A DNA stretch of 43,660 bases, from positions 1 to 43,660 of the forward strand of contig CAYJWZ010000001.1 in the NCBI GenBank assembly GCA_964374055.1, written 5' to 3'. Origin of the DNA: an uncultured Candidatus Saccharibacteria bacterium (lineage in GTDB: Bacteria > Patescibacteriota > Andersenbacteria > UBA10190). This document shows, piece after piece, positions 7,300 through 39,916 of this stretch; within the stretch, counting starts at the first letter, position 1, and every line of letters begins with the position of its first letter. The position numbers and the translations under genes were made by a program. The notes beneath the pieces are model-generated. The model was given only the letters and a program-made list of their open reading frames with translations. It had not been told where the DNA came from and searched no databases.

Positions 7300-7370
7300 C
7301 AAAAACTGAAATAGTAATACAATAAAACCAGTTCCCTTCACCTAAAAACCACCACAGAAAGGAGGCCATT

Positions 7371-7697
7371 GTGGCTTACGTCGAAACGATCGGCGTCTCG
7401 TTGGCTATGCTCTTCATCATGCGCTGGCTGATACTTGATCTGCCCACCCTAATATTCGGCCGAAACAGTCTTATGGGATGGGCCTGTGGAAAAGTCCAGC
7501 GACTTCTCTACACCATCCTCATGACGCCAGCCAACATGTTTCGCGATGGTGCGAAAGAAGTCAGGCGAAGTGTTCGCCGCCAACCATGGTGGCAGCAGCT
7601 AACCGCCATCTTCTTCGCGTTACTCCTATGCATTGCTTGGCTGGCTTTTTGGCTCCCAGCCAAAGTAATTGGCCGCCCACCTGGCAAGAAAAAGTAG
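7371..7697 (+). CDS. Hypothetical membrane protein (108 aa)
   Basis: GTG start with AAAGGAGG (7357-7365) upstream; hydrophobic N- and C-terminal segments; terminator follows. Confidence 0.5.
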   Translation: MAYVETIGVSLAMLFIMRWLILDLPTLIFGRNSLMGWACGKVQRLLYTILMTPANMFRDGAKEVRRSVRRQPWWQQLTAIFFALLLCIAWLAFWLPAKVIGRPPGKKK

Positions 7698-7701
7698 CCA
7701 C

Positions 7702-7735
7702 AAACCCCGTTGGGAAACCAGCGGGGTTTCTTTCT
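7702..7735 (+). terminator. Rho-independent terminator between convergent genes
   Basis: AAACCCCG (7702-7709) / CGGGGTTT (7722-7729) followed by CTTTCT. Confidence 0.6.
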
Positions 7736-7746
7736 GCCAAAATTAT

Positions 7747-8022
7747 TTATTTCGCGATCGCGACGACGGTTGTTCGTTTCGTAGCGCCGGTAAATGTTTT
7801 GATCTTTGGCCGGGTGAACTGCACCATGCCTCCCACGGCCGCGTAAAGCGTATCATCGGCGCCCCGGCGTACGTTGAGTCCCGGGCGATAGCGCGTCCCG
7901 CGCTGCCGAATAATGACTTCACCGGCTTGTGCCGGCTGGCCGCTAAAAACCTTGACGCCGAGCCGCTTGGAATGCGAATCGCGCCCGAGACTGGTGGAGC
8001 CGCCTGCTTTCTTATGTGCCAT
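7747..8022 (-). CDS. rpmA: 50S ribosomal protein L27
   Basis: [26 protein letters not shown]... is the canonical L27 N-terminus. Confidence 0.95.
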
Positions 8023-8037
8023 AGATTCTCTGGTTTT

Positions 8038-8072
8038 CCTCGCCCTGGATAGGGAGAGGATTAAGGTGAGGG
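8038..8072. repeat. GC-rich hairpin repeat (CCTCGCCCT/AGGGAGAGG type)
   Basis: CCTCGCCCT-ggat-AGGGAGAGG followed by AAGGTGAGGG; same family as 2142-2166 and 42391-42426. Confidence 0.55.
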
Positions 8073-8079
8073 TTAATAA

Positions 8080-15725: not shown

Positions 15726-17280
15726 TCGTTTGGTCGAGGTCGCCCCGGCTGTTCCGTTGAACGCGACTGCTCGCCAAACATACACCTATCGCCTCACCGC
15801 CCCGCCGTCCGAACCACTGCTCTACCGCTCTGTCCGTATTTTACTGGGAAGTCGTCGTACGCATGGCTTTATCATCAGCGAAGCTAGCAAGCTACCCAGC
15901 TATCCACTGAAAACCGCCCACCTTTTAGCGACCGTCGCTTTAACCGCCGCCCAGGTTAGCTTCGCCGAATGGTTGCACACCACCCAACGGGGCGGCTTAG
16001 GCTACACCCTTCGCCTTTTTTCCCCGCCGACCGAGCCTATCGCCGTGTCCAGAAAAAAACACCTAACCCAAAAGCCCCGGGCTATCATTCAGGTCAACCC
16101 TGCCAAGCGGTGGGCTGCACTTGGCCGACAACTGCAACCGTATCTCAAGAAAAAACAGCCGGTGTTAATTATTGTTCCCGAAAAATGGCTGCTTGAACCA
16201 CTGGCCGCCGTGCTGGCCAAAAAACTGGCGTGTTCACCGCTCATTATTCACGCTGGCCTCAAAAAAAGTACGCTCCAGCGGGCCATCCATGCTATTACGC
16301 ACCATACCCCACTGATCATCGGCACCCAAAAAGCGCTTTTTCTCCCCTACCCGGCACTCGGCGCCGTGGTCTTAGAAGCAGAAAATTATCAAACACACAA
16401 ATTGTGGGATCAATATCCCCGCCTCTCCAACTGGCATGGAGCGGAGCAAGTGGCCAGTCTCCACCGCGCTACCCTTATCTATAGCACTAGTTTCCCCTCC
16501 GTCCGACTCTATGGCCGCCTTCAGACCGAAAAAATAAAAAGCATCGGCCGGCTGACAACACTCCCCAAAACACACGTGCTACCTCTCTCCTTTTCTGAGC
16601 GTCAACAGAACCATTTTCTTCCCCGGCCGCTTATTAGTTTAATGCGCGGGTGGTTAAAGAAAAAAAATGTTGGGACTATCGGGCTGGTGCACACCCTCTC
16701 ATTAAACCGCGCCAAAGAGCTTCGCCACACCCTGTATACCGCGCTTGGTCGATCAGCCAATCTGATCGTTGGCACACCCTCTGAAATCACTGGCCAAGCA
16801 AAAAGGCCGTATCAGCAGCTTATCTGGCTCTTTCCAGAAACTATTTTACGCTACCCCGACTATCGTAGCCGTGAACAGGCCTATACCCTACTCCAACGTT
16901 TCGCCCAGCTCCTCCCCCGCCAGCAATCTATATATCTGATCACTCGTTTCCCTCGCCAACTTGAACAGGAATTACTCATCCCTCCTGCCGACTATTTCGA
17001 GCAGGAATTAAAAGCTCGTCAGCGGCTGTCCTATCCGCCGTTTGCCGAAGTGGTACGCCTGACCATCACTGACCGTACGGCCAAACAAGCTGAAGCGGCC
17101 GCCGCCAAAGTCCGCCAACAACTAGAAGCCCATGGGCTGGTACGTGGACCACTGGCCGCGCTGCACAACACGAAGTCGGAACGCCATCTTATTCTCCGTG
17201 GGCCGCTGGCCACGCTGACCGCACTCTATCACGATATAAAAATCAGCCGCGCTGACCTTGACCCCTTCAGACTTCTATAA
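15718..17280 (+). CDS. PriA (primosomal protein N')-like protein lacking ATPase and zinc-finger motifs
   Basis: N-terminus VEVAPAVPLNATARQTYTYRL and C-terminal RLSYPPFAEVVRLTI are PriA-like. Expected GSGKT is absent, DEEH is replaced by LEAENY, and there are no CxxC pairs. ATG 15718 overlaps the upstream stop. Confidence 0.55.
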   Translation: MSDRLVEVAPAVPLNATARQTYTYRLTAPPSEPLLYRSVRILLGSRRTHGFIISEASKLPSYPLKTAHLLATVALTAAQVSFAEWLHTTQRGGLGYTLRLFSPPTEPIAVSRKKHLTQKPRAIIQVNPAKRWAALGRQLQPYLKKKQPVLIIVPEKWLLEPLAAVLAKKLACSPLIIHAGLKKSTLQRAIHAITHHTPLIIGTQKALFLPYPALGAVVLEAENYQTHKLWDQYPRLSNWHGAEQVASLHRATLIYSTSFPSVRLYGRLQTEKIKSIGRLTTLPKTHVLPLSFSERQQNHFLPRPLISLMRGWLKKKNVGTIGLVHTLSLNRAKELRHTLYTALGRSANLIVGTPSEITGQAKRPYQQLIWLFPETILRYPDYRSREQAYTLLQRFAQLLPRQQSIYLITRFPRQLEQELLIPPADYFEQELKARQRLSYPPFAEVVRLTITDRTAKQAEAAAAKVRQQLEAHGLVRGPLAALHNTKSERHLILRGPLATLTALYHDIKISRADLDPFRLL

Positions 17281-18241
17281 CCACCGGCGTCAGCGCCGCC
17301 TTGCCATGCAACACTGCTAAGACGTTTTGCGCCGCCAGCTCGGCCATGGCCGAGCGCGTCTCAAGGGTGGCCGAAGCCACATGCGGCGTCAGAATAACAG
17401 CAGTCAATTCACTCAAGCCGGGTGTTAAATGTGGTTCTTTCTCAAAGACATCGAGTGCTGCTCCGCGCAGTAAGCCGGCTTGCAACGCCTCGAGCAAGGC
17501 CGGCTCATCAATCACCGCGCCGCGAGCCGTGTTAATCAGCAAAGCCGTCGGCTTAAGTAATTTTAAGCGCGCTGCCTGCAACAGATGAAACGTACTCGGT
17601 AGCAGAGGCACATGCAGTGATAAGACATCAACTTCCGGCAACAAGCGGTCAAGCTCCGGCACAAATTGGGCCGTGACACCCTGTTGAAATAACGAACTAG
17701 GTTTCAAATCGTTATACATAATCCGCATGCCAAACCCATGCTGAGCGATTCGGGCCGTTTCAAAGCCAATCCGGCCGCCACCGACAATCCCCAGCGTTTT
17801 TCCTCGTAATTCCATACCGAGCAACAATTCCGGCTCCCAGCCGTGGAACTTTCCCGCCCGCGTAAACTGATCGGCTTCAACGAGGCGCCGGGCCAGCGCG
17901 AGCATAAGCGCAATCGCATGCTCGGCTACTGAATACGTCACCACACCCGGCGTGTTTGTTATAACAATTCCCTTAGTTTGTGCCGCCTGAACGTCAATGT
18001 TGTCGTAGCCAGCCGCATAATTGGCAATAACTTTAAGTTGCGAACCGGCTCGGGCCAACATCTCAGCTGTAATCCGGTCACTTAGCAAGGTAAGTAAACC
18101 ATCATAGTCGTTCATCGCTTGTAACAGCTCAACGTGAGTCAGTCGCGCTGTCCCCTGGTGCACCATTACTTCCACGCCTGCCTGTTGCAGTAATTCCACC
18201 GCTCGACCCGGTAATGAGGCTGTTATAAAAACCTTGGCCAT
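17267..18241 (-). CDS. D-isomer-specific 2-hydroxyacid dehydrogenase (glyoxylate/hydroxypyruvate reductase-like)
   Basis: GIVGGGRIGFETARIA, LLINTARGAVIDEPAL, ALDVFEKEP, TPHVASAT. Confidence 0.85.
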   Translation of the reverse strand: MAKVFITASLPGRAVELLQQAGVEVMVHQGTARLTHVELLQAMNDYDGLLTLLSDRITAEMLARAGSQLKVIANYAAGYDNIDVQAAQTKGIVITNTPGVVTYSVAEHAIALMLALARRLVEADQFTRAGKFHGWEPELLLGMELRGKTLGIVGGGRIGFETARIAQHGFGMRIMYNDLKPSSLFQQGVTAQFVPELDRLLPEVDVLSLHVPLLPSTFHLLQAARLKLLKPTALLINTARGAVIDEPALLEALQAGLLRGAALDVFEKEPHLTPGLSELTAVILTPHVASATLETRSAMAELAAQNVLAVLHGKAALTPVVIEV

Positions 18242-18263
18242 AGTAAACTGACCTTACCGTACT

Positions 18264-18737
18264 ATGTTCCAAAAGTTTTGGGAATGGTATGAACGCACCC
18301 TCCCGACCCAGGTAATCATTGTCGCCCTTTTGTTTATCTGGCAGCTCACCCATCTGTACTGGCTGACAACTGACGTTGTACTCCCGCGCCTCTTCGGCTT
18401 TAGTTTGTTTCCCGATTCCCCACTCCTCAAATTTGCCGTTATCGTCGCTGACCATGCGGAAATACCGGCCTTACTGTCCGCTACCCTCTATTACCTCAAT
18501 GAACTGCGTAAAAAGTTCCGTCGACGCTCACTGAGCTATATTATTTTAGTCAATTCGCAGTGGTTGCACTTGTTCTGGATCACCGACACCTTTATTGTCC
18601 ATGTCTTTAGTAACCAGCCCGCTAGCCTACCGGCGTGGTTAGCCTGGATAGCCATTGGTATCGACTATCTGGAACTACCGGTGATCTACGATACCCTCAA
18701 AAAATCACTAGGCTATATACGAACAAAAGTGGCCTAA
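18264..18737 (+). CDS. Polytopic membrane protein (157 aa), hypothetical
   Basis: About four hydrophobic helices; no family recognised. Confidence 0.55.
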   Translation: MFQKFWEWYERTLPTQVIIVALLFIWQLTHLYWLTTDVVLPRLFGFSLFPDSPLLKFAVIVADHAEIPALLSATLYYLNELRKKFRRRSLSYIILVNSQWLHLFWITDTFIVHVFSNQPASLPAWLAWIAIGIDYLELPVIYDTLKKSLGYIRTKVA

Positions 18738-18777
18738 AAAGCCCTTTTAAGCGGTTTTCTACTTATCCACAATCAGC

Positions 18778-18807
18778 TTGACAAACCCAACTTTCATACA
18801 CTATCAT
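18778..18807 (+). promoter_or_regulatory. Sigma70-like promoter of the three-small-ORF operon
   Basis: TTGACA (18778-18783), 18-nt spacer, TATCAT (18802-18807). Confidence 0.45.
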
Positions 18808-18871
18808 ACACATACGAGAAGGTTACGAGCGTACCCTTCACAACTCTCACTTTTCAGAAGGAGGCAGCATC

Positions 18872-19042
18872 ATGAGCGTGTTGCAAAAACTGAAAGAACG
18901 AATGGAAAACGACCCCAGGATTCGCCCCGATCTCTTGCCCTATGGCATCGAAGAGATGCCGGAAATTCAGAAACTCATCCTCGCCTATCTCGATCAAAAC
19001 CACCGGGAGGTGCCCAATGGTTCCGACCATCACGCGTGCTGA
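18872..19042 (+). CDS. Small hypothetical protein (56 aa)
   Basis: GAAGGAGG (18857-18864) 7 nt upstream of the ATG; below the ORF-track cutoff; overlaps the next ORF. Confidence 0.45.
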   Translation: MSVLQKLKERMENDPRIRPDLLPYGIEEMPEIQKLILAYLDQNHREVPNGSDHHAC

Positions 19043-19211
19043 CATCGTGCGGGCTCTCCTGGCTTCACTCGAGAAGCCGGAAAGCGCCCAAGCCAATGCT
19101 CGGCAAAAGCTCGATGCCCAATTGCAACGGCAGCTCAATGACGGCGCCGGCAACATGCCTCCCGGACTCCGCTCCCGAATGCTAATCCTGCAACTCCACA
19201 GGAGGTCATGA
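19017..19211 (+). CDS. Small hypothetical protein (64 aa)
   Basis: GGGAGG (19005-19010) 6 nt upstream of ATG 19017; its stop overlaps the next start (ATGATG). Confidence 0.45.
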   Translation: MVPTITRADIVRALLASLEKPESAQANARQKLDAQLQRQLNDGAGNMPPGLRSRMLILQLHRRS

Positions 19212-19399
19212 TGCTGAAATTTGCGGAACGACTACCCACTGCTGAAAGGCGCCGGTTGGAGCTGGCCCAAACGCTGCTCAAGGAGCTCGAACATGTTCCA
19301 CCAGGAACCGCCTACGACCGAGCTCTCGACGACTACCCACTCAGCAGCGAACGCCAACTCCACCTCGCCCTACAGACCTTCATCGCCCAAAATATCTAA
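19208..19399 (+). CDS. Small hypothetical protein (63 aa)
   Basis: AGGAGG (19200-19205) upstream; ATGA overlap with the previous ORF; terminator follows. Confidence 0.5.
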   Translation: MMLKFAERLPTAERRRLELAQTLLKELEHVPPGTAYDRALDDYPLSSERQLHLALQTFIAQNI

Positions 19400-19417
19400 A
19401 CAAACCCCAACAACATA

Positions 19418-19444
19418 CCCCACCACAGCGCTGGTGGGGTTTTT
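19418..19444 (+). terminator. Rho-independent terminator
   Basis: CCCCACCA-cagcgc-TGGTGGGG followed by TTTTT. Confidence 0.7.
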
Positions 19445-20434
19445 CTATCCGCGCTTTCGTTTGGCCACGCGCAACACCGCCGCCTGAATGGCATCGGCGT
19501 CCATGCGGTACTTTTTCAACAACTGCGCCGGTTCGCCCGATTCACCAAATGAGTTGTGCATGCCGACAAACTCCATCGGCACCGGATACGTCCGCGCCAA
19601 CACCTCGGCAATGGCGCTGCCTACCCCGCCCATCACCTGATGTTCCTCACACGTCACCACCGCCCCACACTCCCGGGCTGCCCGTTCAATCGCCTCTTCG
19701 TCCATCGGCTTAATGCTCGGCGAATTAATCACTCGCACCGAAACCCCGCGTTCAATTAACCGATCCGCCGCCACCAATGCTGAATGAATAATCGGCCCGG
19801 CGCCAATCACGGCGACGTCTTTTCCCTCGCGCAGCGTGAGCGCCTTGCCAATCTTGAACGGTGTCTTTTCCGTCGTGAATAAGGGACTGGCTGAGCGGGC
19901 AAAGCGAAAGTAGACCGGCCCATCAATGGCGGCGACTGCGTGTACTACCTTACGGGTTTCTTCAGCATCAGCCGGCACCAACACCGTCATCCGCGGTAAC
20001 ACGCGAGTAAGCGCTATATCCTCCATTGCCTGATGAGTCGCCCCGTCCGGCCCAACCGAAATGCCGCTATGGGCGCCGGCTAACTTCACATTAGCCTTGT
20101 TGTAACACATGGAAATGCGGATCTGATCCCAATTCCGGCCCGGGCAGAACACGGCGTAGGTAGAAACAAACGGAATTTTCCCGGCTAGCGCCAGCCCCAC
20201 CGCTACCGCCGCCATATTCTGCTCGGCCACACCCATTTCGATAAATCGCTCGGGGAATTTTTCCTGAAACTTGATCGCCCGGGTTGATTCCACTAAGTCG
20301 CCACTTAATACCACGACATCGTCGTTCTGCTCACCCAATTCCACCAGCCCCCGACCATACCCATCCCGCGTGGGCGCGAGCTCTACCTCCTTACTTAACG
20401 TCGCTCGTTTTAGATGAGCACCGTTACTCAACAT
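19445..20434 (-). CDS. tkt: Transketolase, C-terminal (pyrimidine-binding) subunit
   Basis: Split-type transketolase: MGVAEQNM, GPDGATHQAMEDIA, C-terminal domain; overlaps the N-subunit gene by 11 nt. Confidence 0.9.
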   Translation of the reverse strand: MLSNGAHLKRATLSKEVELAPTRDGYGRGLVELGEQNDDVVVLSGDLVESTRAIKFQEKFPERFIEMGVAEQNMAAVAVGLALAGKIPFVSTYAVFCPGRNWDQIRISMCYNKANVKLAGAHSGISVGPDGATHQAMEDIALTRVLPRMTVLVPADAEETRKVVHAVAAIDGPVYFRFARSASPLFTTEKTPFKIGKALTLREGKDVAVIGAGPIIHSALVAADRLIERGVSVRVINSPSIKPMDEEAIERAARECGAVVTCEEHQVMGGVGSAIAEVLARTYPVPMEFVGMHNSFGESGEPAQLLKKYRMDADAIQAAVLRVAKRKRG

Positions 20435-21272
20435 AAATTTTTCCTCCCAAAGTTCTTAGTTGCGTCAGTGCTGCCTTAGCTTGTGTGGCATCAGGCGGTA
20501 CTCCATGCCACTTGAAATCATACTCCATAAATTCCACTCCTTTGCCCGGAATCGTGTGCGCAATAATACAGACCGGCTTCTCCACAATCGCCTTCGCTTC
20601 GTTACAGGCATCAATGATCTGTTCAATATTATGGCCATCAACATCAATCACGTGCCAGCCGAAGGCTTCATACTTTTCCCGCAACGGCTCCAGTGTCATC
20701 ACCTGTTCGGTCGGCCCGTCAATTTGAATATTATTGCGATCAATAATCGCCGTCAGGTGCCCCAAGGTATAGTGTCCGGCAAACATCACTGCTTCCCACG
20801 TCGACCCCTCATCATGTTCGCCGTCTGATAACAGACAATAGGTCTGATATTTTTTTCCATCCAGCTTACCCGCATAGGCGCAGCCGGAGGCGATGCCCAA
20901 CCCTTGCCCCAAACTGGCCGCCGATGATTCCACGCCGGGCGTGGTCAGCCGGTCAATATGCCCTTGCAGGCGAGAACCCAATTTGCGCAGCGTTTTGAGT
21001 TCTGCCACCGGGAAAAATCCGGCGCGGGCCAACACGGCATACCAGATCGGCGCCGTATGCCCGCAGGAAACAAATAAGCGATCGCGATCCGGATCGTGTC
21101 GTTTACGCGGACTCAGATTCAAAACATCAAAATAAAGCGCTGTGGCGATCTCCGCTAAATCCAGCGGCCCGGCCGAGTGCCCCGAGCCGGCCGCCACCAA
21201 CATTTTAATCACATCTTGCCGCAGCGTAGTGGCCATACGCGCGAGCGTTGGAAGATGCTGTGCCTCCCGCAT
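20424..21272 (-). CDS. tkt: Transketolase, N-terminal (TPP-binding) subunit
   Basis: GHSAGPL, GSLGQGLGIASG, LSDGEHDEGSTWEA, IIDRNNIQIDG. Confidence 0.9.
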   Translation of the reverse strand: MREAQHLPTLARMATTLRQDVIKMLVAAGSGHSAGPLDLAEIATALYFDVLNLSPRKRHDPDRDRLFVSCGHTAPIWYAVLARAGFFPVAELKTLRKLGSRLQGHIDRLTTPGVESSAASLGQGLGIASGCAYAGKLDGKKYQTYCLLSDGEHDEGSTWEAVMFAGHYTLGHLTAIIDRNNIQIDGPTEQVMTLEPLREKYEAFGWHVIDVDGHNIEQIIDACNEAKAIVEKPVCIIAHTIPGKGVEFMEYDFKWHGVPPDATQAKAALTQLRTLGGKIYVE

Positions 21273-21295
21273 CGTTTCAGTATATCACTTCGCCT

Positions 21296-21319
21296 CGCCG
21301 AAGCTCTAGCGAAGGCGGG
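21296..21319. repeat. 24-nt exact repeat CGCCGAAGCTCTAGCGAAGGCGGG, copy 2 (provides the stop codon and last codons of rpe)
   Basis: Identical to 8345-8368. Confidence 0.8.
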
Positions 21320-22031
21320 CCATCTCGGCCAATAACTGCAAGTGCTGTAAATTTTCCACCGGATCACCCGCCCCAAAAATTGCCGTATTCGCGGCCAGGC
21401 GCGTGGCGCCACTAGCTACATAACGCCCGACTGTTTCCTTGTTCACGTGCCCATCAACGGCGATTGGGAGGGCTGGATGTCGCGCTTTCCAGCGCGCAAT
21501 CTTATTAAACACCTTTTCGTTTATCGGCTGATTGGCCCACCCCGGGTTGTAGCCCATAAACAAAACGAAATGCAGCCGCCGTACATATTCTTCTAAATAG
21601 TCCGCCGGCGTTTCCGGATTAATCGCCAGCGCCAGTTCAGCCCCTGTCCGTTCGCGCAAGCTTTGGTACAGTCCAATAAGATCATCCGTACCAGCAAAAG
21701 ATTCCAAGTGAAAAATACAGCGTGCCGGATCGAGCGCAACAATTTCCGTCAGATAGTTAATCGGTGTATGCACCATCATGTGCAACTCAATTTTGTCATA
21801 GGACGGCAACTGCTTAAAGCGCGTAATATCCCGAAAGGTTCCCTCGCCAGCGAAAATGCCATCCGTTATATCAATCTGCACATGTAATGCCGCCGTATAA
21901 ACGCGGGCCCAATCAGCCGCTATACCCTCATACGTCCGGCGCAGAATTGCCGGCACCACTTCAACCGTGGCCGCCACCATGTCCACACGAACAGCCGCCG
22001 CTCCCACATGTGCGGCCGTGCTGGCCTTCAT
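21306..22031 (-). CDS. rpe: Ribulose-phosphate 3-epimerase-like protein
   Basis: HVQIDITDGIFAG, ELHMMVHTP, HLES, LAINPETP, VLFMGYNPGWANQ, IAVDGHVN. Start set to ATG 22031 (GGGGGAG 10 nt upstream); ATG 21980 is an alternative. Confidence 0.7.
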   Translation of the reverse strand: MKASTAAHVGAAAVRVDMVAATVEVVPAILRRTYEGIAADWARVYTAALHVQIDITDGIFAGEGTFRDITRFKQLPSYDKIELHMMVHTPINYLTEIVALDPARCIFHLESFAGTDDLIGLYQSLRERTGAELALAINPETPADYLEEYVRRLHFVLFMGYNPGWANQPINEKVFNKIARWKARHPALPIAVDGHVNKETVGRYVASGATRLAANTAIFGAGDPVENLQHLQLLAEMARLR

Positions 22032-22467
22032 ACTGCAACATCTCCCCCACTCGCCGCACATGCCGCTCCGCCGGATCAAACGCCGTCTCCAGAAAAGCTT
22101 CTACTACCGTCTTGGCTGTCTCTTCAGAAATAAAATCAGCACCCAGCGCCAAGATATTAATATCATCATCCTGCCGCGCGGCTTCAGTAATCTTTGGTTC
22201 ATGCATCAAGGCCGCTCGCACACCGGCCACTTTATTTGCCGCCACCGCCATACCGGCGCCGGAACCACAGAGCACTATCCCCCGCCGCTCATGCGGCTGT
22301 TCAGCTACTGCCTCCGCCACTTTAAAAGCGTAATCAGGGTAATCATCTTTCTCATCCATTTTTTCCGCTCCCACATCATGCACCGTATGGCCTTTTCCCG
22401 TGAGCCACTCCCCTATTTTATTTTTCAGCTCCCATCCCCGATGATCCGCCCCCAAATAAATTTCCAT
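21961..22467 (-). CDS. rpiB: Ribose-5-phosphate isomerase B
   Basis: MEIYLGADHRGWELKNKI, GIVLCGSGAGMAVAANKVAGVRAAL; unusual Cys/Gly/His-rich C-terminal tail that overlaps rpe. Confidence 0.85.
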   Translation of the reverse strand: MEIYLGADHRGWELKNKIGEWLTGKGHTVHDVGAEKMDEKDDYPDYAFKVAEAVAEQPHERRGIVLCGSGAGMAVAANKVAGVRAALMHEPKITEAARQDDDINILALGADFISEETAKTVVEAFLETAFDPAERHVRRVGEMLQYEGQHGRTCGSGGCSCGHGGGHG

Positions 22468-22566
22468 TCCCTTATCGTATCAGCCCATTGACCGAATGGC
22501 GAGAGAAGGCCTACGCTGCCTGTAGCCCAGTTTCTGATGGTTGTTTGACAATCAAAAGGAGATGTC

Positions 22567-23454
22567 ATGGCAAAAGCCTACCAACCGACTGATCAGATCA
22601 TCATTGAAAGCCGCCCCGACGGAGAAGAAGTTGCTATCCACAACCTACTCTATGGCGGCCCCGGCGGACGAACCATTTTCCAGGGCAAAGTTCCTTTGAC
22701 GAACTTTGTTTCAGGCCTGGCCCGACACGTTGTAAGCTACGCGCCGCTCAACCTTGGCCTGATTCCAGCTGGCATGACACTCCGGCTGCTGGAGCGCAGC
22801 AATGGCTGGTATCTGTTCGTGGTTGAGGAAACACCCGGTATCCACACCGTTCAATGGGTGCGTGACGATTCGAAGGCAAAATATGGTTCCGGTGCGACTT
22901 ATCGGACGGTTACCCTGGCGTTTCCCTGGATCTATTTCTTCCTGGTATTGTCGCCCACCGGAAACTTCTCCCAGCTCAACAGTGTCTACTTTCGCAACAG
23001 TCCCCTGACCTCGCTTGACGACCCGCTGTATGATCCGCACTTCTTCAACTGCTCAGTTGACGCGTATGGCGGCCATTGTTGGATCTGTGTCCAGTCCACA
23101 CACATTGAGGGTCACTCCTTACTGGCTCGCGTTGAGTCCTTCATTCAGTGGTTTTGGAACTCGGGCTTTAACGCCAGTTCTGAAGCCCATGAAACAGCTA
23201 AAGGCAGCTTCTGGACGTACAACCGTGACCGCATTGCTGATCAACGCGTCCAATCAATCGCTGCCTGGGAAAAGGCGTCGCGTGCCAATCCGAATTTTGC
23301 GGTCACTGTTCCGTGGATCAACTCCAACCACACCCCGCTCACCCTATGCCGGGAATTGACTGTCGCCAGTCTACCCGGTTCAGGATCACCGTGCACAGCG
23401 CGCGGCTTCGCCAACCTGATCCAAAACCTCAGTAAAGAAAAGGAGGACAACTAG
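22567..23454 (+). CDS. E2 (UBC)-like conjugating-enzyme candidate (295 aa)
   Basis: AAGGAG (22556-22561) RBS. Beta-rich core (WYLFVVEE, IHTVQWV, YRTVTLAFPWIYFFLVL, SVYFRN) followed by PHFFN-x9-C171-W-I-C174, reminiscent of HPN...C. First gene of the JAB/E1/Ubl cassette. Assignment is by context and pattern only. Confidence 0.45.
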   Translation: MAKAYQPTDQIIIESRPDGEEVAIHNLLYGGPGGRTIFQGKVPLTNFVSGLARHVVSYAPLNLGLIPAGMTLRLLERSNGWYLFVVEETPGIHTVQWVRDDSKAKYGSGATYRTVTLAFPWIYFFLVLSPTGNFSQLNSVYFRNSPLTSLDDPLYDPHFFNCSVDAYGGHCWICVQSTHIEGHSLLARVESFIQWFWNSGFNASSEAHETAKGSFWTYNRDRIADQRVQSIAAWEKASRANPNFAVTVPWINSNHTPLTLCRELTVASLPGSGSPCTARGFANLIQNLSKEKEDN

Positions 23455-24156
23455 ATGCTCTTACCCCACCCACGCCTTGTGGCGACTAACGATCCCACTG
23501 ACTGGCGCCGGAAGGAGTGGCCTGAATTTGTTGACCACTTGGTGCTGACGCCGGAAGGCGTCTTCTCGATTCGCCGGGAAGGAGGATCCATCTACCGAAG
23601 GCCGGCCCAGGCGGCTGACTTCGAACGCATGTATGGTGCGGCCGTAAAAGAACGGCTTTTCCGGGGTGCGGTGGAGCTGAAACAGCGCGCCCCTTACCAG
23701 TTACTGTTGCAGGCGATCAGCTTCTTTCGCTATGTCTGGCAACAGCAACGTCGGGAGGATATCCTGCTTCTCTATTTTTTTGAGAAGAAGCAGCGCTATC
23801 AACTGGTTCACCCACCACTCAAAACGGCTTCCCATGCTCACGTCGACTATACGTTCCCTCCAACCCCGGAAGAGGCCGTGCGTTTCGGCTCGATTCATTC
23901 CCATGGCGCCGAGCAAGCCTCTCATTCCCCGCAAGATTACAAGGACGACCAGCTCTCGCCCGGCGTGCACGTAATTGTCGGACAGCTCGATCGACTATAT
24001 CAGAGCGTTAAATGCATTGCCTCCGATGGTGCTGGTTGTTTCGAGGTCTCGCTGTGGGATGTGTTTACTGAACCGGACATGCCGAAGTTTCCGCCCACGT
24101 GGTTTATCGACCTTCCCCTCACCCAAAGGAGTACTAAGTATGGTCCCGGTTTCTGA
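23455..24156 (+). CDS. JAB/MPN (JAMM) metalloprotease
   Basis: Exact JAMM motif H148-S-H150-x7-S158-x2-D161 (IHSHGAEQASHSPQD, nt 23896-23937) with upstream E101; AGGAGG (23441-23446) RBS; ATG directly abuts the upstream stop. Confidence 0.8.
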   Translation: MLLPHPRLVATNDPTDWRRKEWPEFVDHLVLTPEGVFSIRREGGSIYRRPAQAADFERMYGAAVKERLFRGAVELKQRAPYQLLLQAISFFRYVWQQQRREDILLLYFFEKKQRYQLVHPPLKTASHAHVDYTFPPTPEEAVRFGSIHSHGAEQASHSPQDYKDDQLSPGVHVIVGQLDRLYQSVKCIASDGAGCFEVSLWDVFTEPDMPKFPPTWFIDLPLTQRSTKYGPGF

Positions 24157-24877
24157 TCGCCCCCTCATCCTGATCGGCTTGGGAGGAATCGCCACCGGCT
24201 ACCTGCCGGCATTAGTGCATTATCACGCCACCGGTGTGCTGCCGTTCGAGATGATCTTGCTGGTTGATGGTAAGCGGTTCCGAAGCGAGAATGCCGCTCG
24301 CCAGCATTTTCTCAAAGAAGAAAACAAGGCGGTCGAGCTTAGCCGCCTGTGGGGACGACACTACCCGCATGTACCACTCCGGGTTCGCCCGGAATTTGTC
24401 ACTCGCGAGAACGTGGCTGAAGTAATCCCGGACCAGTCAGTAGTCCTGCTGGCTCCTGATAATCATGCCACTCGCAAGCTTGTCAGTGATCATGTGGAAA
24501 CAGTGGATGACGTTCTGTTGATCAGTGGCGGCAATGATGCTATTGATGAGAAGACAGGCCAGGACGGTACGGAAGGAGCCGTGTTAGTTCACTTCAGGGT
24601 TGGTGGGCAGAACCTTACGCCACCCATCACTCACTATCATCCGGAGATCGCCCATCCCACCGATGGCTTACCAGCCAATATTGGATGCACCGAGCTCGCC
24701 CAGTCACAGCCGCAACTGGCTGCCACCAATTGGCTGGTTGGTCAAACCATGGCCGAATTGCTCTACCGGTATTGCTGCTTACCCAACGACGAAGCCACTC
24801 AAGTAGTTGAGCGTTGGGTCAACAGTCGCACGCGCGCGCAAGCGGATTACGGACCAGTGGAAAGGTTTGTAATCTAA
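24140..24877 (+). CDS. ThiF/MoeB/E1-like adenylyltransferase (245 aa, minimal)
   Basis: Start ATG 24140 with AAGGAG (24126-24131). GLGGIATG nucleotide loop, LLVDGKRFRSENAARQHF (D..N..RQ), NKA, APDNHATR, Cys183 in NIGCTEL. Overlaps the JAB gene by 17 nt. Confidence 0.8.
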   Translation: MVPVSDRPLILIGLGGIATGYLPALVHYHATGVLPFEMILLVDGKRFRSENAARQHFLKEENKAVELSRLWGRHYPHVPLRVRPEFVTRENVAEVIPDQSVVLLAPDNHATRKLVSDHVETVDDVLLISGGNDAIDEKTGQDGTEGAVLVHFRVGGQNLTPPITHYHPEIAHPTDGLPANIGCTELAQSQPQLAATNWLVGQTMAELLYRYCCLPNDEATQVVERWVNSRTRAQADYGPVERFVI

Positions 24878-24907
24878 ACCATTTCCCTTTTCATGAGGAG
24901 AAGCGTC

Positions 24908-25228
24908 ATGTTTTGCGAAGCCTTGATGCCGCCCCCCACCGTCACCCGAACGGCCAAGATCCAACAGGTGCCGCCCGGCCAGCACCACACCATCGTCCTC
25001 AAGCAGGGTTCCCGGAAGGTCTACCTCGTCTGTGAGGATGCTACCGTCGGCGAAGTACGCGAGTACTACGCCAACCAAGTCGGCGCCGCTGGCGTGGATC
25101 AGCTGGAAGTGGCCATCACCTCGGGCAAGGGCACCAAAACCTATGCCCCCGACAAGGCTGCTTCTCTCCTGGTCACGCCCGACATGAAGGTGCTCGAATT
25201 CCGCGCACCGGCCCCCGCCAAGGGCTAA
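24908..25228 (+). CDS. Ubiquitin-like (beta-grasp) protein candidate ending in Gly (106 aa)
   Basis: GAGGAG (24895-24900) 7 nt upstream of ATG 24908. C-terminus ...EFRAPAPAKG then stop. Alternating beta/alpha pattern; last gene of the cassette; terminator follows. Confidence 0.55.
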   Translation: MFCEALMPPPTVTRTAKIQQVPPGQHHTIVLKQGSRKVYLVCEDATVGEVREYYANQVGAAGVDQLEVAITSGKGTKTYAPDKAASLLVTPDMKVLEFRAPAPAKG

Positions 25229-25267
25229 CTTTGTTCTTTCTCCTGTGTGAACCCATGCAGGTGTGGA

Positions 25268-25306
25268 CCCTCGCAAAGATCCCCAGATCTTCGCGAGGGT
25301 TTTTTC
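25268..25306 (+). terminator. Rho-independent terminator of the Ubl cassette
   Basis: CCCTCGCAAAGATC-ccca-GATCTTCGCGAGGG (one mismatch) followed by TTTTTTC. Confidence 0.8.
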
Positions 25307-25314
25307 TTAGTCAT

Positions 25315-25395
25315 AAAAAAGACCCGTAAAACATCCAATGTTTTACGAGTCGCCCCCCCTATACGTTTAGGCCGATTGCCGTGCGGAATGTACAC
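25315..25395 (-). ncRNA. Candidate ~80-nt small RNA (orphan promoter plus terminator, no ORF)
   Basis: Minus-strand promoter at 25402-25430. Minus-strand terminator GACTCGTAAAACAT-tgg-ATGTTTTACGGGTC (25321-25351) followed directly by TTTTTT (25315-25320). Confidence 0.5.
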
Positions 25396-25453: not shown

Positions 25454-25699
25454 ATGGGTTTTTTAAGTGGTCTTTTCTCACGCCGCGGCTTAAGAAAACA
25501 ACTTTCCGGCCTAGGAGGTCTTAAAAAGAATCGGAGCAACCGGCGCCTGCTCGAAAAACAACTCTACACTAAACGCTCTGGCGGTGTTTCCAAACGAGAA
25601 TTGAATTCGTTGACGCGTGGCATGATAAAAAATAGCAAGGATTCCTTCAAGCCTTTTCAAGCCCGTCGCCTTCGCAAGCAACTCCGCGGCCTACTGTGA
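25454..25699 (+). CDS. Very basic small protein (81 aa), hypothetical
   Basis: About a quarter of residues are K/R; LRKQL motif near both ends (GLRKQLSGL, RLRKQLRGL); TATACT 10 nt upstream of the ATG; no good RBS. Confidence 0.35.
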   Translation: MGFLSGLFSRRGLRKQLSGLGGLKKNRSNRRLLEKQLYTKRSGGVSKRELNSLTRGMIKNSKDSFKPFQARRLRKQLRGLL

Positions 25700-26434: not shown

Positions 26435-26467
26435 CCCAAGTGAACCACACACTCACTTGGGTTTTTT
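26435..26467 (+). terminator. Rho-independent terminator
   Basis: CCCAAGTG (26435-26442) / CACTTGGG (26454-26461) followed by TTTTTT. Confidence 0.7.
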
Positions 26468-26476
26468 ATTACGGTG

Positions 26477-26547
26477 TTCCGGGACAGGGATTCGAACCCC
26501 AGTTTCCAGGTTCAGAGCCTGGCGTCCTGCCGCTAGACGATCCCGGA
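26477..26547 (-). tRNA. tRNA-Gln (anticodon CUG)
   Basis: Cloverleaf read by hand: acceptor TCCGGGA/TCCCGGA, anticodon stem CCAGG/CCTGG with loop CTCTGAA, T-arm TGGGG-TTCGAAT-CCCTG, discriminator A. No encoded CCA. Confidence 0.8.
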
Positions 26548-26607
26548 ATGTGGTCACACAATACTGAAAAAACCGATTTTTTGCAAATATATGCTATAGT
26601 TGTAACT

Positions 26608-26871
26608 ATGAACTGGACTGGAATACCGTACTGGAAGCGCGGGGGGCGTGTTGGGGTAGTGCTGGCCGGAGTGGTATTTGTACTTGCCCTGCTGTGGAAT
26701 ATCAAGTCATTTGTAGTAAATAACTGGAGTAATGTCGACTGGGCTTTTATTGTTTTCATTCATGGTTTTTTAGCTGTTGTAATTTCGATAGTGATGACTG
26801 TCCCTGCCCTGCTTATCCTTTGGCTTGGTGGCATGGGAATTGGCTGGCTGTACGGCAAAACAAAAACATAA
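26608..26871 (+). CDS. Small membrane protein (87 aa), hypothetical
   Basis: The longer ORF (26440) overlaps the tRNA. ATG 26608 lies 7 nt after TGcTATAGT (26592-26600). Two to three hydrophobic helices. Confidence 0.5.
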   Translation: MNWTGIPYWKRGGRVGVVLAGVVFVLALLWNIKSFVVNNWSNVDWAFIVFIHGFLAVVISIVMTVPALLILWLGGMGIGWLYGKTKT

Positions 26872-37800: not shown

Positions 37801-38250
37801 CCACGCGGCACCACTATTGAAGTAGTCGGCCCCGTTGATGAAGACGGTAAAGTGCAAGATGTTACTGTATTGGAGCACATACAGGATAGCCAAACCGGTG
37901 AACCAATAATTCAACAACGCTTTTTTGAACGTCCGGTAGCCGAGCAAAGCGAAGCCACGCCCCCGGCAACTAATTGGGAGGTGGCCACGGTTGCTACCGG
38001 TGTGTTTGCAGTCCAAAGCGAAAAACAGACTTTCTCGCCTATTGTTATTACTGAGCGCGACCTGATCACCGTGGCCGAAACTGCCAGTAGTCGTACTACC
38101 AAAGCGCCGCGAGGTGCAAAACAAGAAGCCGCTCCTTTCGCTACCAAACCGCAACCAGCGCTCGTACTTACTGTATCTGATCAAACCACCACAGCCACGG
38201 CCGCAACGACCGTTCCACCAATCAGTATAAGAACCTATGCCGCAAACTAA
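34888..38250 (+). CDS. Giant acidic, Pro/Glu/Val/Thr-rich repeat protein (1120 aa), hypothetical
   Basis: ATG 34888 (MSEIQTPD...) with AAGGAG 11 nt upstream. Single long ORF; no signal peptide or TM seen; 160-aa in-frame duplication; Pro-rich stretch near residues 800-900. Confidence 0.7.
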   Translation: MSEIQTPDLEMLEELPEVAAFDSKKEDEPDEDKKTEEKEQVEDEEAADFEAAEEELMAIAGCSRLEIVSAAETYEVTVEPDGRAYIGTSLIPNFVPEPSHVGVDDKGIEHGMYARVMTGQRTEGDKKIYTFMVQNYRIPETEQPAEEVSKEELLLTEPLIMEQPGEQVWSEEENLAPAEQVENKAAGYATDAVELPGEITEEVVIEASPLVAETDLETSIIVPLPKTSAIEAPLPTGVEQPIAIPPVETILQESDKKPDIPQGIEVIADVREQEATPPKSIEVPIVENTLEQSEIISQPQVEITTLETPAKPPVQNYEVNTVVPVEVKSKKFKVTEIVVPQEVTKIEKNTVTVEQAPPQPKSIMAEVTARETTPISITPSENLSTTKETQAPENDFVPKELSPTPAITAPGHNEVQVPIETRKLQPVVVESASTELPITVPISATEKPTILVDDLAVTYEPSPSRLVVPEVTINDDSVATLEVSPKPAQAIERSPKTIKQTPSNISQPISVSKVETHAQPPVVEKTTPVSSEVPVTTIEVISVDQPEQDRIVEDDFVITQEPAPVFNSEKVPFVNEVPSQKVAISETVVESASTELPITVPISATEKPTILVDDLAVTYEPSPSRLVVPEVTINDDSVATLEVSPKPAQAIERSPKTIKQTPSNISQPISVSKVETHAQPPVVEKTTPVSSEVPVTTIEVISVDQPEQDRIKVAISETSESPTKNMEPIHVIPVNEPKVPPLVAPEAITQEKTSNPDITPPEIVVDLVQPILKVESPAPIAPTEMVETQPSPTTVSPVVFTPPETKSPPAITEQAPTTAPELTTFNPQTDIKEPAPAAPPVPLQAPTTPAPLVTPPPPQNFTPQPPMPPVSTKFVIPEAISQLTPPEIISAVSQPSSSPESFVPIPPERPQPEVRPLSPEVAEEITEIMQTPPIVQQENTPPLFPPEIIIRDRKGIITQPFYEVMAALEAAPRGTTIEVVGPVDEDGKVQDVTVLEHIQDSQTGEPIIQQRFFERPVAEQSEATPPATNWEVATVATGVFAVQSEKQTFSPIVITERDLITVAETASSRTTKAPRGAKQEAAPFATKPQPALVLTVSDQTTTATAATTVPPISIRTYAAN
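36168..36540 (+). repeat. 373-bp direct repeat, copy 1 (100% identical to copy 2)
   Basis: Line-by-line comparison with 36648-37020; offset is exactly 480 bp (in frame). Confidence 0.95.
36648..37020 (+). repeat. 373-bp direct repeat, copy 2
   Basis: Identical to 36168-36540. A 21-nt motif AAAGTAGCCATATCAGAAACA flanks it on both sides (36628-36648 and 37021-37041). Confidence 0.95.
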
Positions 38251-39916
38251 CACCCCGCTCCGGATCCGCGATCTGCTGCGCGAAGATATAGGTTATGAAC
38301 GCCTGCCACTCATCGAACGCCAGGCTGAACTTGACCGCTTGGCCCGTCGCTTGCGCCAACGTCGCCACAATAATCTCATTATCACTGGCCCGGCTGGTTG
38401 TGGTAAAACTGCCCTCTTCCACGGTTTTGTTGAAAAGCTTGCCACCGGCGCCTACCGCCAGCTAGTCGCCATGCCATACCTTAGTATATCCGCCACCGAG
38501 CTCAGTCGGCGCTTACTTGAGGCCCCGGATCGGGAAACAGTTTGTAACTATCTGGCCGCTGCCTTCAGGACATTGCCGACCGTAACCGTACTCATTGACG
38601 ATGCCGAACTTATCCTCGATGAACTGCACAGCCGTTCAGAGTTTACTCAAATCTTCGAAACTTTTTTGATCTCTGCCCGTTGCCGCCTCGTGCTCGTTCT
38701 TCCTCAACATCGTCTAACGATCATAAAAGAAAAATTCGATGCCGCCCTCACCAGTTTCGATATCCTCACCCTTGATCCACTCTCTAGTGCCGCCACCGAA
38801 CAACTCGTCATCCAACAGACTCCTCTGCTCGCTCAGCGCTATCACCTCCGCATGACCCGCGATGCCATCCAGACAATTGTTGAATTCAGTCAGCAACTAC
38901 CCATGCACTACGCCTTGCCCGAACGTGCCCTGCGCTTTTTTGAAGAAGTCTGCGCGGCTACTTCACTTCAGAATAAATCTGTCGTGGAGCGTAGCGATGT
39001 CCAAGCAGTGTTTCGCCAGCACGTTGGCCTACCGGCCCTTCAGCAAAATTCTGAACAAACCAATCGTTTACGTCAGCTGCCCGATATTCTAGCCAGCCAC
39101 GTGCACGGCCAGGCACACGCCGTTACCATAGTAGCTAAAACCGTTCAAGCCTCATGGCTCGGCCTGAAAGACGGTCGCCGCCCCTTTGGCTCTTTTTTAT
39201 TCCTCGGGCCCTCCGGTGTCGGCAAAACTGAACTGGCCAAAGTGCTGGCTCGTGAAGTGTTTGGTAGTGAGCAAACTTTTCTGCGCTTGGATATGTCAGA
39301 ATTTGCCGAGTCACATAACGCGCAGCGTCTTCTCGGTGCCCCACCCGGCTATGTCGGCTATGAAGCCGGTGGCCAGTTAACCAGCTTTGTGGAGCAACAC
39401 CCCTTTTCGTTGATTTTGCTCGACGAAATTGAAAAAGCGCATCCCTCTCTTTTTGATTTGTTCCTGCAAATTCTGGACGATGGTCGCTTAACCGATGGGC
39501 ACGGCCAGACAATCGATTTCACCAAAACCATCATTGTTGCTACTTCGAATGTCGGCACTTCTTACATCGTCGATGAAGCTGAACAAGGAAAAGATATCAC
39601 CAGTCATTCCTGGTTTAATGAGTATCTTTTGCCGCTCCTCTTGGAACGGTTCCGCCCCGAGTTTATTAATCGCTTCTCCGCCACCCTGGTCTTTAAGCCA
39701 CTCTCTGATGAAACGCTCTTGGCCATTGCTCACCAGGAACTACGTCGTCTCGAGCACCAAGTGCGACCACGCGGTATCACCTTACAATTTTCTGATGACT
39801 GGCTGCGTCAGCAAGTGCACCACTACCGCCACCCGCTTTTTGGTGCCCGTCCGTTGAAACGTTTCCTGGAACAAACATGTGAAAATCTTGTAACCGCTAA
39901 ATTATTACAACTATGA
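38237..39916 (+). CDS. Truncated Clp/Hsp100-type double AAA+ ATPase (559 aa; no N-domain or middle domain)
   Basis: D1: NNLIITGPAGCGKTAL, VLIDDAELI. D2: FLFLGPSGVGKTELAKVLA, PPGYVGYEAGGQLT, LILLDEIEKAH, ATSNVG, FRPEFINRFSATLVFKPL, GARPLKRFLE. ATG overlaps the upstream gene by 14 nt. Confidence 0.8.
   Translation: MPQTNTPLRIRDLLREDIGYERLPLIERQAELDRLARRLRQRRHNNLIITGPAGCGKTALFHGFVEKLATGAYRQLVAMPYLSISATELSRRLLEAPDRETVCNYLAAAFRTLPTVTVLIDDAELILDELHSRSEFTQIFETFLISARCRLVLVLPQHRLTIIKEKFDAALTSFDILTLDPLSSAATEQLVIQQTPLLAQRYHLRMTRDAIQTIVEFSQQLPMHYALPERALRFFEEVCAATSLQNKSVVERSDVQAVFRQHVGLPALQQNSEQTNRLRQLPDILASHVHGQAHAVTIVAKTVQASWLGLKDGRRPFGSFLFLGPSGVGKTELAKVLAREVFGSEQTFLRLDMSEFAESHNAQRLLGAPPGYVGYEAGGQLTSFVEQHPFSLILLDEIEKAHPSLFDLFLQILDDGRLTDGHGQTIDFTKTIIVATSNVGTSYIVDEAEQGKDITSHSWFNEYLLPLLLERFRPEFINRFSATLVFKPLSDETLLAIAHQELRRLEHQVRPRGITLQFSDDWLRQQVHHYRHPLFGARPLKRFLEQTCENLVTAKLLQL

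Follow-up and report, generated by a model that had tools for sequence, protein, structure and literature searches.

Organization of the cassette

Four co-directional open reading frames (ORF1 to ORF4), located at positions 22567-25228 of a 43,660-nt stretch from an uncultured Candidatus Saccharibacteria bacterium (contig CAYJWZ010000001.1), make up a cassette that may specify the attachment and removal of a ubiquitin-like protein (Ubl). The whole stretch is referred to as the window and all coordinates are positions in it, except for those preceded by the number of another locus (L001 and so on). The genes (Table 1) form one tightly packed unit, in which ORF1 and ORF2 abut with a junction of 0 nt, ORF2 and ORF3 overlap by 17 nt and ORF3 and ORF4 are separated by 30 nt. 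AGGAG-type ribosome-binding sites are present 6-11 nt 5' of every ORF ATG, that of ORF1 reading AAGGAG at 22556-22561. The terminator hairpin (25265-25302) together with its U-run folds with -24 kcal/mol (z = -5.7) and none of 200 shuffled sequences (0/200) folds as well; a simple consensus scan missed it because of one internal mismatch. By such a scan no sigma-70-like promoter was detected in the intergenic region upstream of ORF1. The GC content of the cassette (0.54-0.56) is the same as that of its surroundings. The four genes form one operon. The ORF list, the sequence and the folding of shuffled sequences agree with a first-pass annotation of the window, which had described the four ORFs, their junctions and ribosome-binding sites, the 99-bp gap to rpiB and the terminator; the motifs it had reported for ORF1, ORF2 and ORF3 are also present at the residues and nucleotides given below.

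Table 1. Features of the operon and its boundaries in the window
Feature	Position	Strand	Size	Description
Upstream intergenic region	22468..22566	+	99 bp	Between divergent rpiB (minus strand) and ORF1; presumed promoter region
ORF1	22567..23454	+	295 aa	Candidate Ubl carrier (E2-like); family unnamed
ORF2	23455..24156	+	233 aa	JAB/JAMM metalloprotease; presumed deconjugase
ORF3	24140..24877	+	245 aa, from ATG at 24140	Single-domain E1-like adenylating enzyme
ORF4	24908..25228	+	106 aa	Ubiquitin-like protein (beta-grasp) with the C-terminus ...APAKG106 (Gly codon 25223-25225)
Intrinsic terminator	25265..25305	+		16-bp interrupted stem, 4-nt loop, then UUUUUU

Predicted adenylating enzyme, peptidase and modifier

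ORF3 contains the adenylation motifs G13-L-G-G, D43-x7-N51-x2-R54-Q, N62-K-A and A105-PDNHATR as well as a cysteine, Cys183 (nt 24686-24688). Residues G13, G15, G16, D43, N51, R54, K63, D107, R112 and Cys183 are invariant in 39/39 homologues. The protein reaches 34.4 bits with Pfam ThiF, above the gathering cut-off of 28.1, and a profile of its family (22 sequences) matches Uba4, ThiF, MoeB, TcdA, SAE2, UBA5 and MccB with E-values down to 7e-12, the matches covering the N-terminal adenylation half only. The equivalog models for ThiF and MoeB yield 11-26 bits against cut-offs of 152-449 (e.g., 26 vs 275). As none of these cut-offs is approached, ORF3 is, by annotation standards, a distinct small E1 and not a sulfur-carrier activator. 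The E1-like signature and the cysteine pointed out in the first-pass annotation are thus both substantiated, and ORF3 is an E1-superfamily adenylase that we predict to be catalytic. Three PDB entries (9egb, 9egc and 9egd) gave weak ThiF-type matches and were not traceable to a paper.

In ORF2, the JAMM signature H148-x-H150-x7-S158-x2-D161 (nt 23896-23937) is accompanied by E101, and E101, H148, H150, S158 and D161 are kept in 37/37 homologues. Scores with family models are low, with 19.8 bits for Prok-JAB (below the gathering cut-off of 25) and 25.8 bits for PRTRC_A; the homologue in L021 attains 25.9 and 40.8 bits, respectively. ORF2 is a predicted deconjugating peptidase with an intact active site, as had been proposed.

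ORF4 matched no hidden Markov model (HMM). Its AlphaFold2 model, based on 14 relatives, has a predicted local distance difference test score (pLDDT) of 83.5 and shows a beta-beta-alpha-beta-beta-(alpha)-beta arrangement with a free C-terminal tail. In Foldseek searches the model retrieved ubiquitin variants, ubiquilin, the Ubl domains of TBCE and BAG6, SUMO, ISG15 and F1 lobes of FERM domains, with probabilities of 0.9-1.0 and E-values from 4.6e-4 to 5e-2. The K-G terminus is present, devoid of any tail, in 14/14 relatives. A second family of Ubls, termed 'AGEKG' after its C-terminus, is encoded next to ORF1-like genes in relatives of the cassette. Comparison of the two families by hhalign gave P=1.9e-4 with an alignment running through the terminal K-G (score 27.0 vs a maximum of 12.2 for shuffled controls). 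This link emerges in profile-profile comparison only, since the HMM of the AGEKG family matches neither ORF4 nor anything else in the window. An alignment was also obtained between the AGEKG family and PRTRC_C/Prok_Ub, whose C-terminus reads AGAKG plus three residues. As modelled, ORF4 is a beta-grasp ubiquitin-like modifier with an exposed C-terminal glycine, in line with the earlier suggestion. When all four proteins were compared with Pfam and NCBIfam, a check called for in the first-pass annotation, ORF3 passed the ThiF cut-off, ORF2 stayed below that of Prok-JAB, and ORF1 and ORF4 had no match.

ORF1, a candidate carrier enzyme

Searches in Pfam, NCBIfam, PADLOC and PDB sequences revealed no match to ORF1, and single-sequence searches of the PDB produced noise only (gamma-crystallin, RCC1). 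Pfam and NCBIfam searches with 100 members of the ORF1 family uncovered no recurrent family, none of these 100 was matched by the Pfam Prok-E2_D HMM (PF14460) at E<=0.05, and a profile of 100 relatives found 0 matches among PDB sequences. The family itself is large: a profile search of 1.84 billion representatives retrieved 1139 representative clusters at E<=1e-3 and 503 at E<=1e-10.

The most conspicuous element is the motif PHFFN161-x9-C171-x2-C174 (Asn161 codon at 23047-23049, Cys174 codon at 23086-23088). Both of its cysteines had been stressed in the first-pass annotation. Cys174 deserves this emphasis, as it is found in 154/154 relatives; C171 does not, as it is restricted, like C162, to the close clade. 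Asn161 occurs in 153/154 relatives, and P120, S214 and W234 are also essentially fixed. No histidine is conserved among the 154 proteins, which argues against a papain-like enzyme.

In 44 of the 154 relatives the ORF1-like domain is preceded by an N-terminal Ubl of about 95 residues that ends in ...(A/S)G(E/V)KG, the two parts meeting at a '...GEKG|' junction. Examples of such natural fusions are encoded at L003:8001-9131 (protein P0015), L022:5364-6560, L026:5632-6777 and L034:5443-6663. At 38 loci an AGEKG-type Ubl with an (A/S)-x-K-G end is encoded directly 5' of the ORF1-like gene; 17 of these Ubls stop exactly at the glycine, most others have tails of 1-15 residues and four are Ubl-ORF1 fusions. 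Two tandem Ubl genes are present in L024 and L035. The idea that residues 1-64 of ORF1 represent a vestigial Ubl was rejected, because in the fusion protein P0015 the Ubl precedes the segment that aligns with these residues.

A link to a described protein family emerged from profile comparison. Plasmid cassettes were retrieved via the ThiF and JAB proteins of relatives, and the protein in the ORF1 position of these cassettes belongs to Pfam Prok-E2_D. With the Prok-E2_D model the proteins from Firmicute plasmids score 25-26 bits and PRTRC protein B scores 173-187 bits; the plasmid E2_D proteins match PRTRC_B at E=3.7e-10. By hhalign, the ORF1 family aligned with seven plasmid E2_D proteins with P=0.0012 over 202 collinear columns, and in this alignment Asn161 falls on the Asn of an FSN motif and Cys174 on the invariant cysteine of family D. 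The highest score among 19 controls (the reversed profile, an unrelated ThiF and 17 column-shuffled versions) was 19.6 compared with 32.7 observed. No significant similarity was obtained between the ORF1 family and F5, a canonical E2 family encoded in larger relatives of the cassette. The top local alignments to PRTRC_B and to F5 both cover the ORF1 segment containing Asn161 and Cys174. These residues are paired with the HPN Asn and the catalytic Cys only in the case of F5; PRTRC_B pairs Cys174 with Cys94 (in TWWC) and does not bring the Asn/Cys of E2_D into register. Taken together, the ORF1 family appears to be linked, weakly and above all controls, to Prok-E2_D, i.e., to PRTRC protein B.

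The AlphaFold2 model of ORF1 (pLDDT 82.7, predicted TM-score (pTM) 0.71) consists of an N-terminal beta-beta-beta-alpha unit, a five-strand meander and a hairpin with the conserved Asn and Cys, followed by helices. In the model, the order of elements resembles that of the ubiquitin-conjugating (UBC) domain. Searches of BFVD with the model retrieved uncharacterized phage proteins, namely A0A6J5P0Y8 (E=3e-13, TM 0.60), A0A7R7G2H5 (E=2e-9) and A0A172Q0C7 from Acinetobacter phage vB_AbaM_ME3 (E=4e-5). The fold therefore recurs, though unannotated. On the level of sequence no relatives were detected when PLSDB plasmids and GenBank phages were searched by tblastn with ORF1 or P0015, or when IMG/VR was scanned for the pattern.

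Relatives of the cassette and a larger form

A scan of GTDB species representatives yielded 39 loci with relatives of the cassette. They stem from Planctomycetota, Verrucomicrobiota, Acidobacteriota, Deltaproteobacteria, Spirochaetales, Alcaligenaceae, a metagenome-assembled genome (MAG) of the Bifidobacteriaceae and a Candidatus Saccharibacteria MAG, the latter being the closest named relative with 39% identity. Genes for ORF1-like, JAB and ThiF proteins are adjacent and co-directional in nearly all 39 loci, and this triad is present in about 40 loci from at least six phyla. The invariance of the catalytic residues across 37-154 homologues and the gene order in about 40 independent loci are therefore more than chance.

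The four-gene form with a K-G-terminated Ubl encoded after the E1 is typical for a close clade that comprises the window, L001 (on the same contig as L002 and L006), L004, L005, L046, L047 and L057. In L005 (3688-7570) and L046 (8491-13367), the cassette resides directly upstream of, and is co-directional with, a stress/sporulation-type operon of the arrangement PrkA - DUF444 (YeaH) - SpoVR. Planctomycetota, Verrucomicrobiota, Acidobacteriota and other phyla feature a longer cassette of about nine genes (L007-L044, e.g., L021:127-8373 and L029:56-8605). It encodes a canonical UBC E2 of family F5 (HPNV...LCLG; match to PDB 2e2c at E=1e-3), a protein without known family, a second Ubl ending in HLG, a second JAB with a CxxC...C insert, an AAA ATPase of about 600 residues and of the proteasomal (Mpa/PAN-like) type (pup_AAA 123 bits; Prot_ATP_ID_OB_C) and sometimes a second AAA protein, and it ends with genes for Ubl(AGEKG), ORF1-like protein, JAB and ThiF in that order. 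None of the additional components is encoded in the window, where the sole match is an unrelated AAA protein at 38231-39916. Judged by gene content, the window carries a reduced core of the larger cassette, and this core is not peculiar to the Candidate Phyla Radiation.

The most distant sequence relative, L003 (JGI 3300020046 contig), has a context like that of a phage or plasmid, with many small ORFs as well as ParB_N and HNH genes; behind an AAA ATPase gene it encodes two ORF1 paralogues in tandem (7111-7872 and 8001-9131). Our literature searches turned up no account of the four-gene cassette or its larger form, and none of a Ubl system from Patescibacteria. A 2020 eLife paper (PMC7159879) mentions, for Planctomycetes, a tri-ligase Ubl system that is coupled to Pup conjugation. 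This system may overlap with the large cassette, but the paper contains no description of the ORF1 family.

Comparison with known systems

Among described systems, PRTRC (class '6d' of Iyer, Burroughs & Aravind 2006; PMC1779556) comes nearest to the cassette; it is found on proteobacterial plasmids. The gene order B-A-ThiF that the first-pass annotation had given for PRTRC is correct: plasmid pBC201 contains ParB - E - C (Prok_Ub) - F (alpha-hel2) - B (Prok-E2_D) - A (DUF2016 + Prok-JAB) - ThiF. We know of no experimental characterization of PRTRC. The core order E2-like protein, JAB and ThiF is identical in both systems, the E1 is small and consists of a single domain, and the Ubl ends in A-K-G in either case (AGAKG in PRTRC_C). 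Moreover, no NCBIfam model matches ORF2 and its relatives better than PRTRC_A (25.8-40.8 bits; tblastn E=1e-5), and between ORF1 and Prok-E2_D there is the weak similarity described above, which is collinear and brings Asn and Cys into register. In contrast to PRTRC, the cassette includes neither ParB nor protein E nor protein F (alpha-hel2), has rpiB and the terminator as its boundaries and is chromosomal and non-mobile, its Ubl is tailless and encoded downstream of the E1, and 13 residues instead of eight make up the Asn-Cys spacing in ORF1. With the PRTRC models (NCBIfam TIGR03734-03742), ORF2 stays well below the cut-off for PRTRC_A (25.8 vs 101.8), PRTRC_B, PRTRC_C and PRTRC_ThiF match no window protein at E<=1, and PRTRC_B matches 0/100 ORF1 relatives.

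Plasmids from Firmicutes and Rubrobacter carry cassettes of the type dnaN - x - x - Prok-E2_D - (Prok_Ub+JAB) - ThiF, examples being Alicyclobacillus p1 and the 235-kb Bacillus thuringiensis israelensis plasmid pAM65-52-3-235K. On the Firmicute plasmids L048, L054, L055 and L056 the Prok-E2_D - (Ubl+JAB) - ThiF genes reside three genes downstream of dnaN; for the Rubrobacter plasmid L051 the sequence shown is too short to check for dnaN. These arrangements suggest a link of the plasmid cassettes to plasmid replication genes. In Lysinibacillus pBsph (L059), a JAB-ThiF pair precedes dnaX and holB. The uncharacterized plasmid cassettes share the order of E2-like, JAB and ThiF genes with the window and provide the best profile link to ORF1. 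They differ in that the JAB protein carries the Ubl as an N-terminal fusion, that they are plasmid-borne beside replication genes, and that their E2_D protein just reaches the Pfam cut-off whereas ORF1 has no match.

Bil (BilABCD; '6C/CEHH') unites the same four activities, namely Ubl, E2, JAB deubiquitinase and E1, and its E2 (CEHH) is likewise a diverged, formerly unrecognized one (10.1101/2023.09.26.559546). The E1 of this system (BilD) is a multidomain protein as opposed to a single domain of 245 residues, gene order is different, and the context of the cassette is not one of defence. PADLOC and Foldseek did not connect any of the four proteins with Bil components, the content of PADLOC 2.0 with regard to Bil models being unchecked. 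In the Bub systems ('6E/DUF6527'), BubAB and BubCD, natural Ubl-E2 fusions are processed by a JAB peptidase (PMC11601596, PMC11601603), a parallel to the Ubl-ORF1 fusions of our relatives. Bub proceeds via Ser/Tyr oxyester intermediates and has no catalytic cysteines, while Cys183 and Cys174 are invariant in the cassette; furthermore, the DUF6527 serine protease is absent from the cassette and the operon has no fifth gene. In cyclic oligonucleotide-based antiphage signalling systems of type II (CBASS; Cap2/Cap3), which have a CD-NTase, E2 and E1 are fused, whereas here the E1 and the E2-like protein are products of separate genes; there is no nucleotidyltransferase gene in the operon and no PADLOC match. 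A small single-domain E1, a beta-grasp protein with a terminal glycine and a JAMM partner are reminiscent of SAMP/UbaA/HvJAMM1 and of the ThiS/MoaD-ThiF/MoeB pairs, where the closest sequence matches of ORF3 are found. Unlike the cassette, these systems work without an E2-like partner, end in G-G and engage in sulfur chemistry, and no equivalog cut-off is attained here. A sulfur-carrier pair is also at odds with the K-G terminus and with the lack of thiamine, molybdenum cofactor or cysteine biosynthesis neighbours in seven contexts. On the basis of these comparisons we assign the cassette to none of PRTRC, Bil, Bub and CBASS.

Proposed function and alternative explanations

We consider it rather probable that the four genes constitute a self-contained module for conjugation and deconjugation of a Ubl in which ORF1 serves as a diverged E2-type carrier. 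ORF3 would bind ATP and adenylate the free C-terminal Gly106 of ORF4, which would then move onto Cys183 of ORF3 as a thioester. From there, ORF4 would be passed to Cys174 of ORF1, with Asn161 taking the role of the Asn in the E2 'HPN' motif. As a highly diverged E2-type carrier that is distantly related to Prok-E2_D/PRTRC protein B, ORF1 would deliver ORF4 to lysines of target proteins, and the JAMM metalloprotease ORF2 would take the tag off again. In the window the tag would not have to be matured by ORF2, given the Gly at the end of ORF4; in relatives with tailed or fused Ubls, maturation would be a further task of the JAB protein. The analysis documents folds, motifs, conservation, synteny and fusions, and we infer the individual chemical steps, the direction in which transfer runs and that there are protein targets.

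Several points weigh against this interpretation. The HMMs for Prok-E2 families and UQ_con match 0/100 members of the ORF1 family. Foldseek comparison of the whole ORF1 model with the PDB brought up no UBC/E2 match, the best hit having E=0.09 and the sole E2 among the matches being noise (E=1.1); we therefore do not claim a UBC fold for ORF1. The AlphaFold and Foldseek check suggested in the first-pass annotation hence succeeded for the beta-grasp fold of ORF4 and failed to produce a UBC match for ORF1. A merged profile of E2_D and PRTRC_B gave a weaker link to the ORF1 family (P=0.005-0.028, about 0.03), still above 20 shuffles, and comparison of the ORF1 family with PRTRC_B alone was not significant. 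Finally, a canonical UBC E2 is encoded in larger relatives, so that in those systems the ORF1-like protein could have its place after an E2 instead of being the E2 itself. For the earlier proposal that ORF1 is an E2, the invariant Asn...Cys pair, the Ubl fusions and the weak Prok-E2_D profile link speak in favour, and the missing UBC structure and E2 HMM match speak against it. On balance of the sequence evidence, ORF1 is likely, though unproven, to be an E2-type enzyme.

An alternative scenario does without any E2, ORF3 alone activating and conjugating ORF4 and ORF2 reversing the reaction, as in archaeal sampylation. SAMP/UbaA/HvJAMM1 systems do function without an E2. The role left for ORF1 would be that of a receptor for substrates, of the principal target or of an enzyme (E3-like and Cys-dependent, or of another kind) that follows the E1 or, in the larger systems, the canonical E2. 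The lack of a UBC fold by Foldseek and of an E2 HMM match fits this scenario, as does the fact that larger relatives already hold a UBC E2 of family F5. Minimal cassettes, however, lack the canonical E2 yet always keep ORF1, and the Asn...Cys pair, the frequent fusions and the collinear similarity to Prok-E2_D are traits of an E2 that are unexpected in a mere target, so that we regard E2-independent tagging as quite unlikely. A role of ORF4 as a sulfur carrier of the ThiS, MoaD, CysO or QbsE type, the thiocarboxylate of which donates sulfur to a small molecule or tRNA, is in our opinion very improbable. In such a pathway the cysteine of ORF1 would relay persulfide or act in biosynthesis, and the JAMM protein would hydrolyse a carrier adduct like Mec+ and QbsD. 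In the CysO and Qbs pathways, sulfur carriers do have JAMM enzymes as partners. ORF3 has its best sequence matches in ThiF, MoeB and Uba4, and ORF4 is small, of the beta-grasp type and terminated by Gly. These similarities are offset by ThiF/MoeB equivalog scores far below the cut-offs, by a match that is limited to the shared adenylation half and by a C-terminus that is K-G and not G-G. Neither in nor next to any cassette examined is there a gene for ThiG, MoaE, CysM, a rhodanese or a cysteine desulfurase, and in relatives the Ubl is fused to ORF1 and the module is accompanied by a UBC E2 as well as an unfoldase of the proteasomal type.

It is also conceivable that the chemistry is as proposed for the conjugation module and that its role lies in defence against phages or mobile elements, as for Bil, or in maintenance of mobile elements, as proposed for PRTRC-type systems, instead of in housekeeping regulation. 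Bil and type II CBASS, the Ubl systems characterized from bacteria, serve in defence (PMC11601596; 10.1101/2023.09.26.559546), the cassette proteins diverge faster than their syntenic neighbours, the distant relative L003 has a phage- or plasmid-like context, the ORF1 model matches uncharacterized phage proteins and the nearest described relatives are plasmid-borne. We nevertheless deem a defence or mobile-element role unlikely: no PADLOC model matches any of the four proteins, no homologue was detected in PLSDB plasmids, GenBank phages or IMG/VR, and the cassette occupies the same chromosomal site in three related genomes, where it has housekeeping flanks and no adjacent defence or mobility genes. 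In L005 and L046 it abuts the PrkA-YeaH-SpoVR stress operon.

To our knowledge, only three bacterial families of Ubl conjugation systems have been worked out, i.e., type II CBASS, Bil and Bub, each of which has an established or proposed connection to phage defence. The conjugation module presented here would be a fourth bacterial Ubl lineage, compact enough for reconstitution. Its E1, Ubl and JAB are recognizable, while the candidate carrier enzyme escapes every current model and is without a solved relative. The cassette resides in a housekeeping context in a reduced genome, and in larger relatives this core is accompanied by an ATPase of the proteasomal type; the carrier-enzyme family and this unfoldase link are the surprising elements. 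If our interpretation is true, the known structural range of E2-like enzymes widens, an entry point into the uncharacterized PRTRC/Prok-E2_D world is gained, and it becomes testable whether bacteria outside of Actinobacteria and Nitrospirae use a ubiquitin-type tag with an unfoldase. A further-reaching possibility, which we put forward tentatively and with more doubt than confidence, is that ORF1 represents a new large family of Ubl carriers (at least 1100 clusters at 50% identity) that defines an undescribed system. The full form of this system, with AAA unfoldase, UBC E2 and second Ubl and JAB, might then be a Pup-independent analogue of ubiquitin-dependent unfolding or degradation, and Saccharibacteria-type genomes might have kept the four-gene core at a fixed housekeeping locus for endogenous regulation.

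Flanking genes

Pentose-phosphate genes lie upstream of the cassette, where the window encodes a 2-hydroxyacid dehydrogenase, a split transketolase, rpe and rpiB. Downstream are a gene for a dNMP kinase and those for tRNA-Gln, a DEAD-box helicase and BipA. Neither flank has defence or mobility genes next to the cassette. The arrangement of the upstream genes is common to the window, L047 and L057. We therefore conclude that the cassette has been vertically inherited in these genomes and is not part of a defence island. When window positions 17267-25228 are compared with L057 and L047, the cassette proteins are 57-77% identical. The corresponding values are 82-94% for the 2-hydroxyacid dehydrogenase, a 157-aa ORF and both transketolase subunits and 68-79% for rpiB. 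Compared with the neighbouring transketolase and 2-hydroxyacid dehydrogenase, the cassette thus evolves faster.

The transketolase (19445-21272) is split into an N-terminal ORF of 282 aa and a C-terminal ORF of 329 aa that overlap by 11 nt. The rpe and rpiB genes span 21306-22467, and the longest rpe ORF, with a TTG start at 22079, overlaps rpiB by 119 nt; this call is probably over-extended, because the orthologues in L057 and L047 comprise 222-226 aa. Directly behind the operon terminator, a second terminator-like hairpin is located on the minus strand (25321-25351). It is followed by a conserved ORF for a very basic protein of 81 aa (25454-25699), which also occurs in L045 and overlaps by 4 nt with the dNMP kinase gene behind it. 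A 143-aa ORF call at 26440-26871 overlaps tRNA-Gln(CTG) (26476-26547) on the opposite strand, and the 5' part of this ORF is probably not coding.

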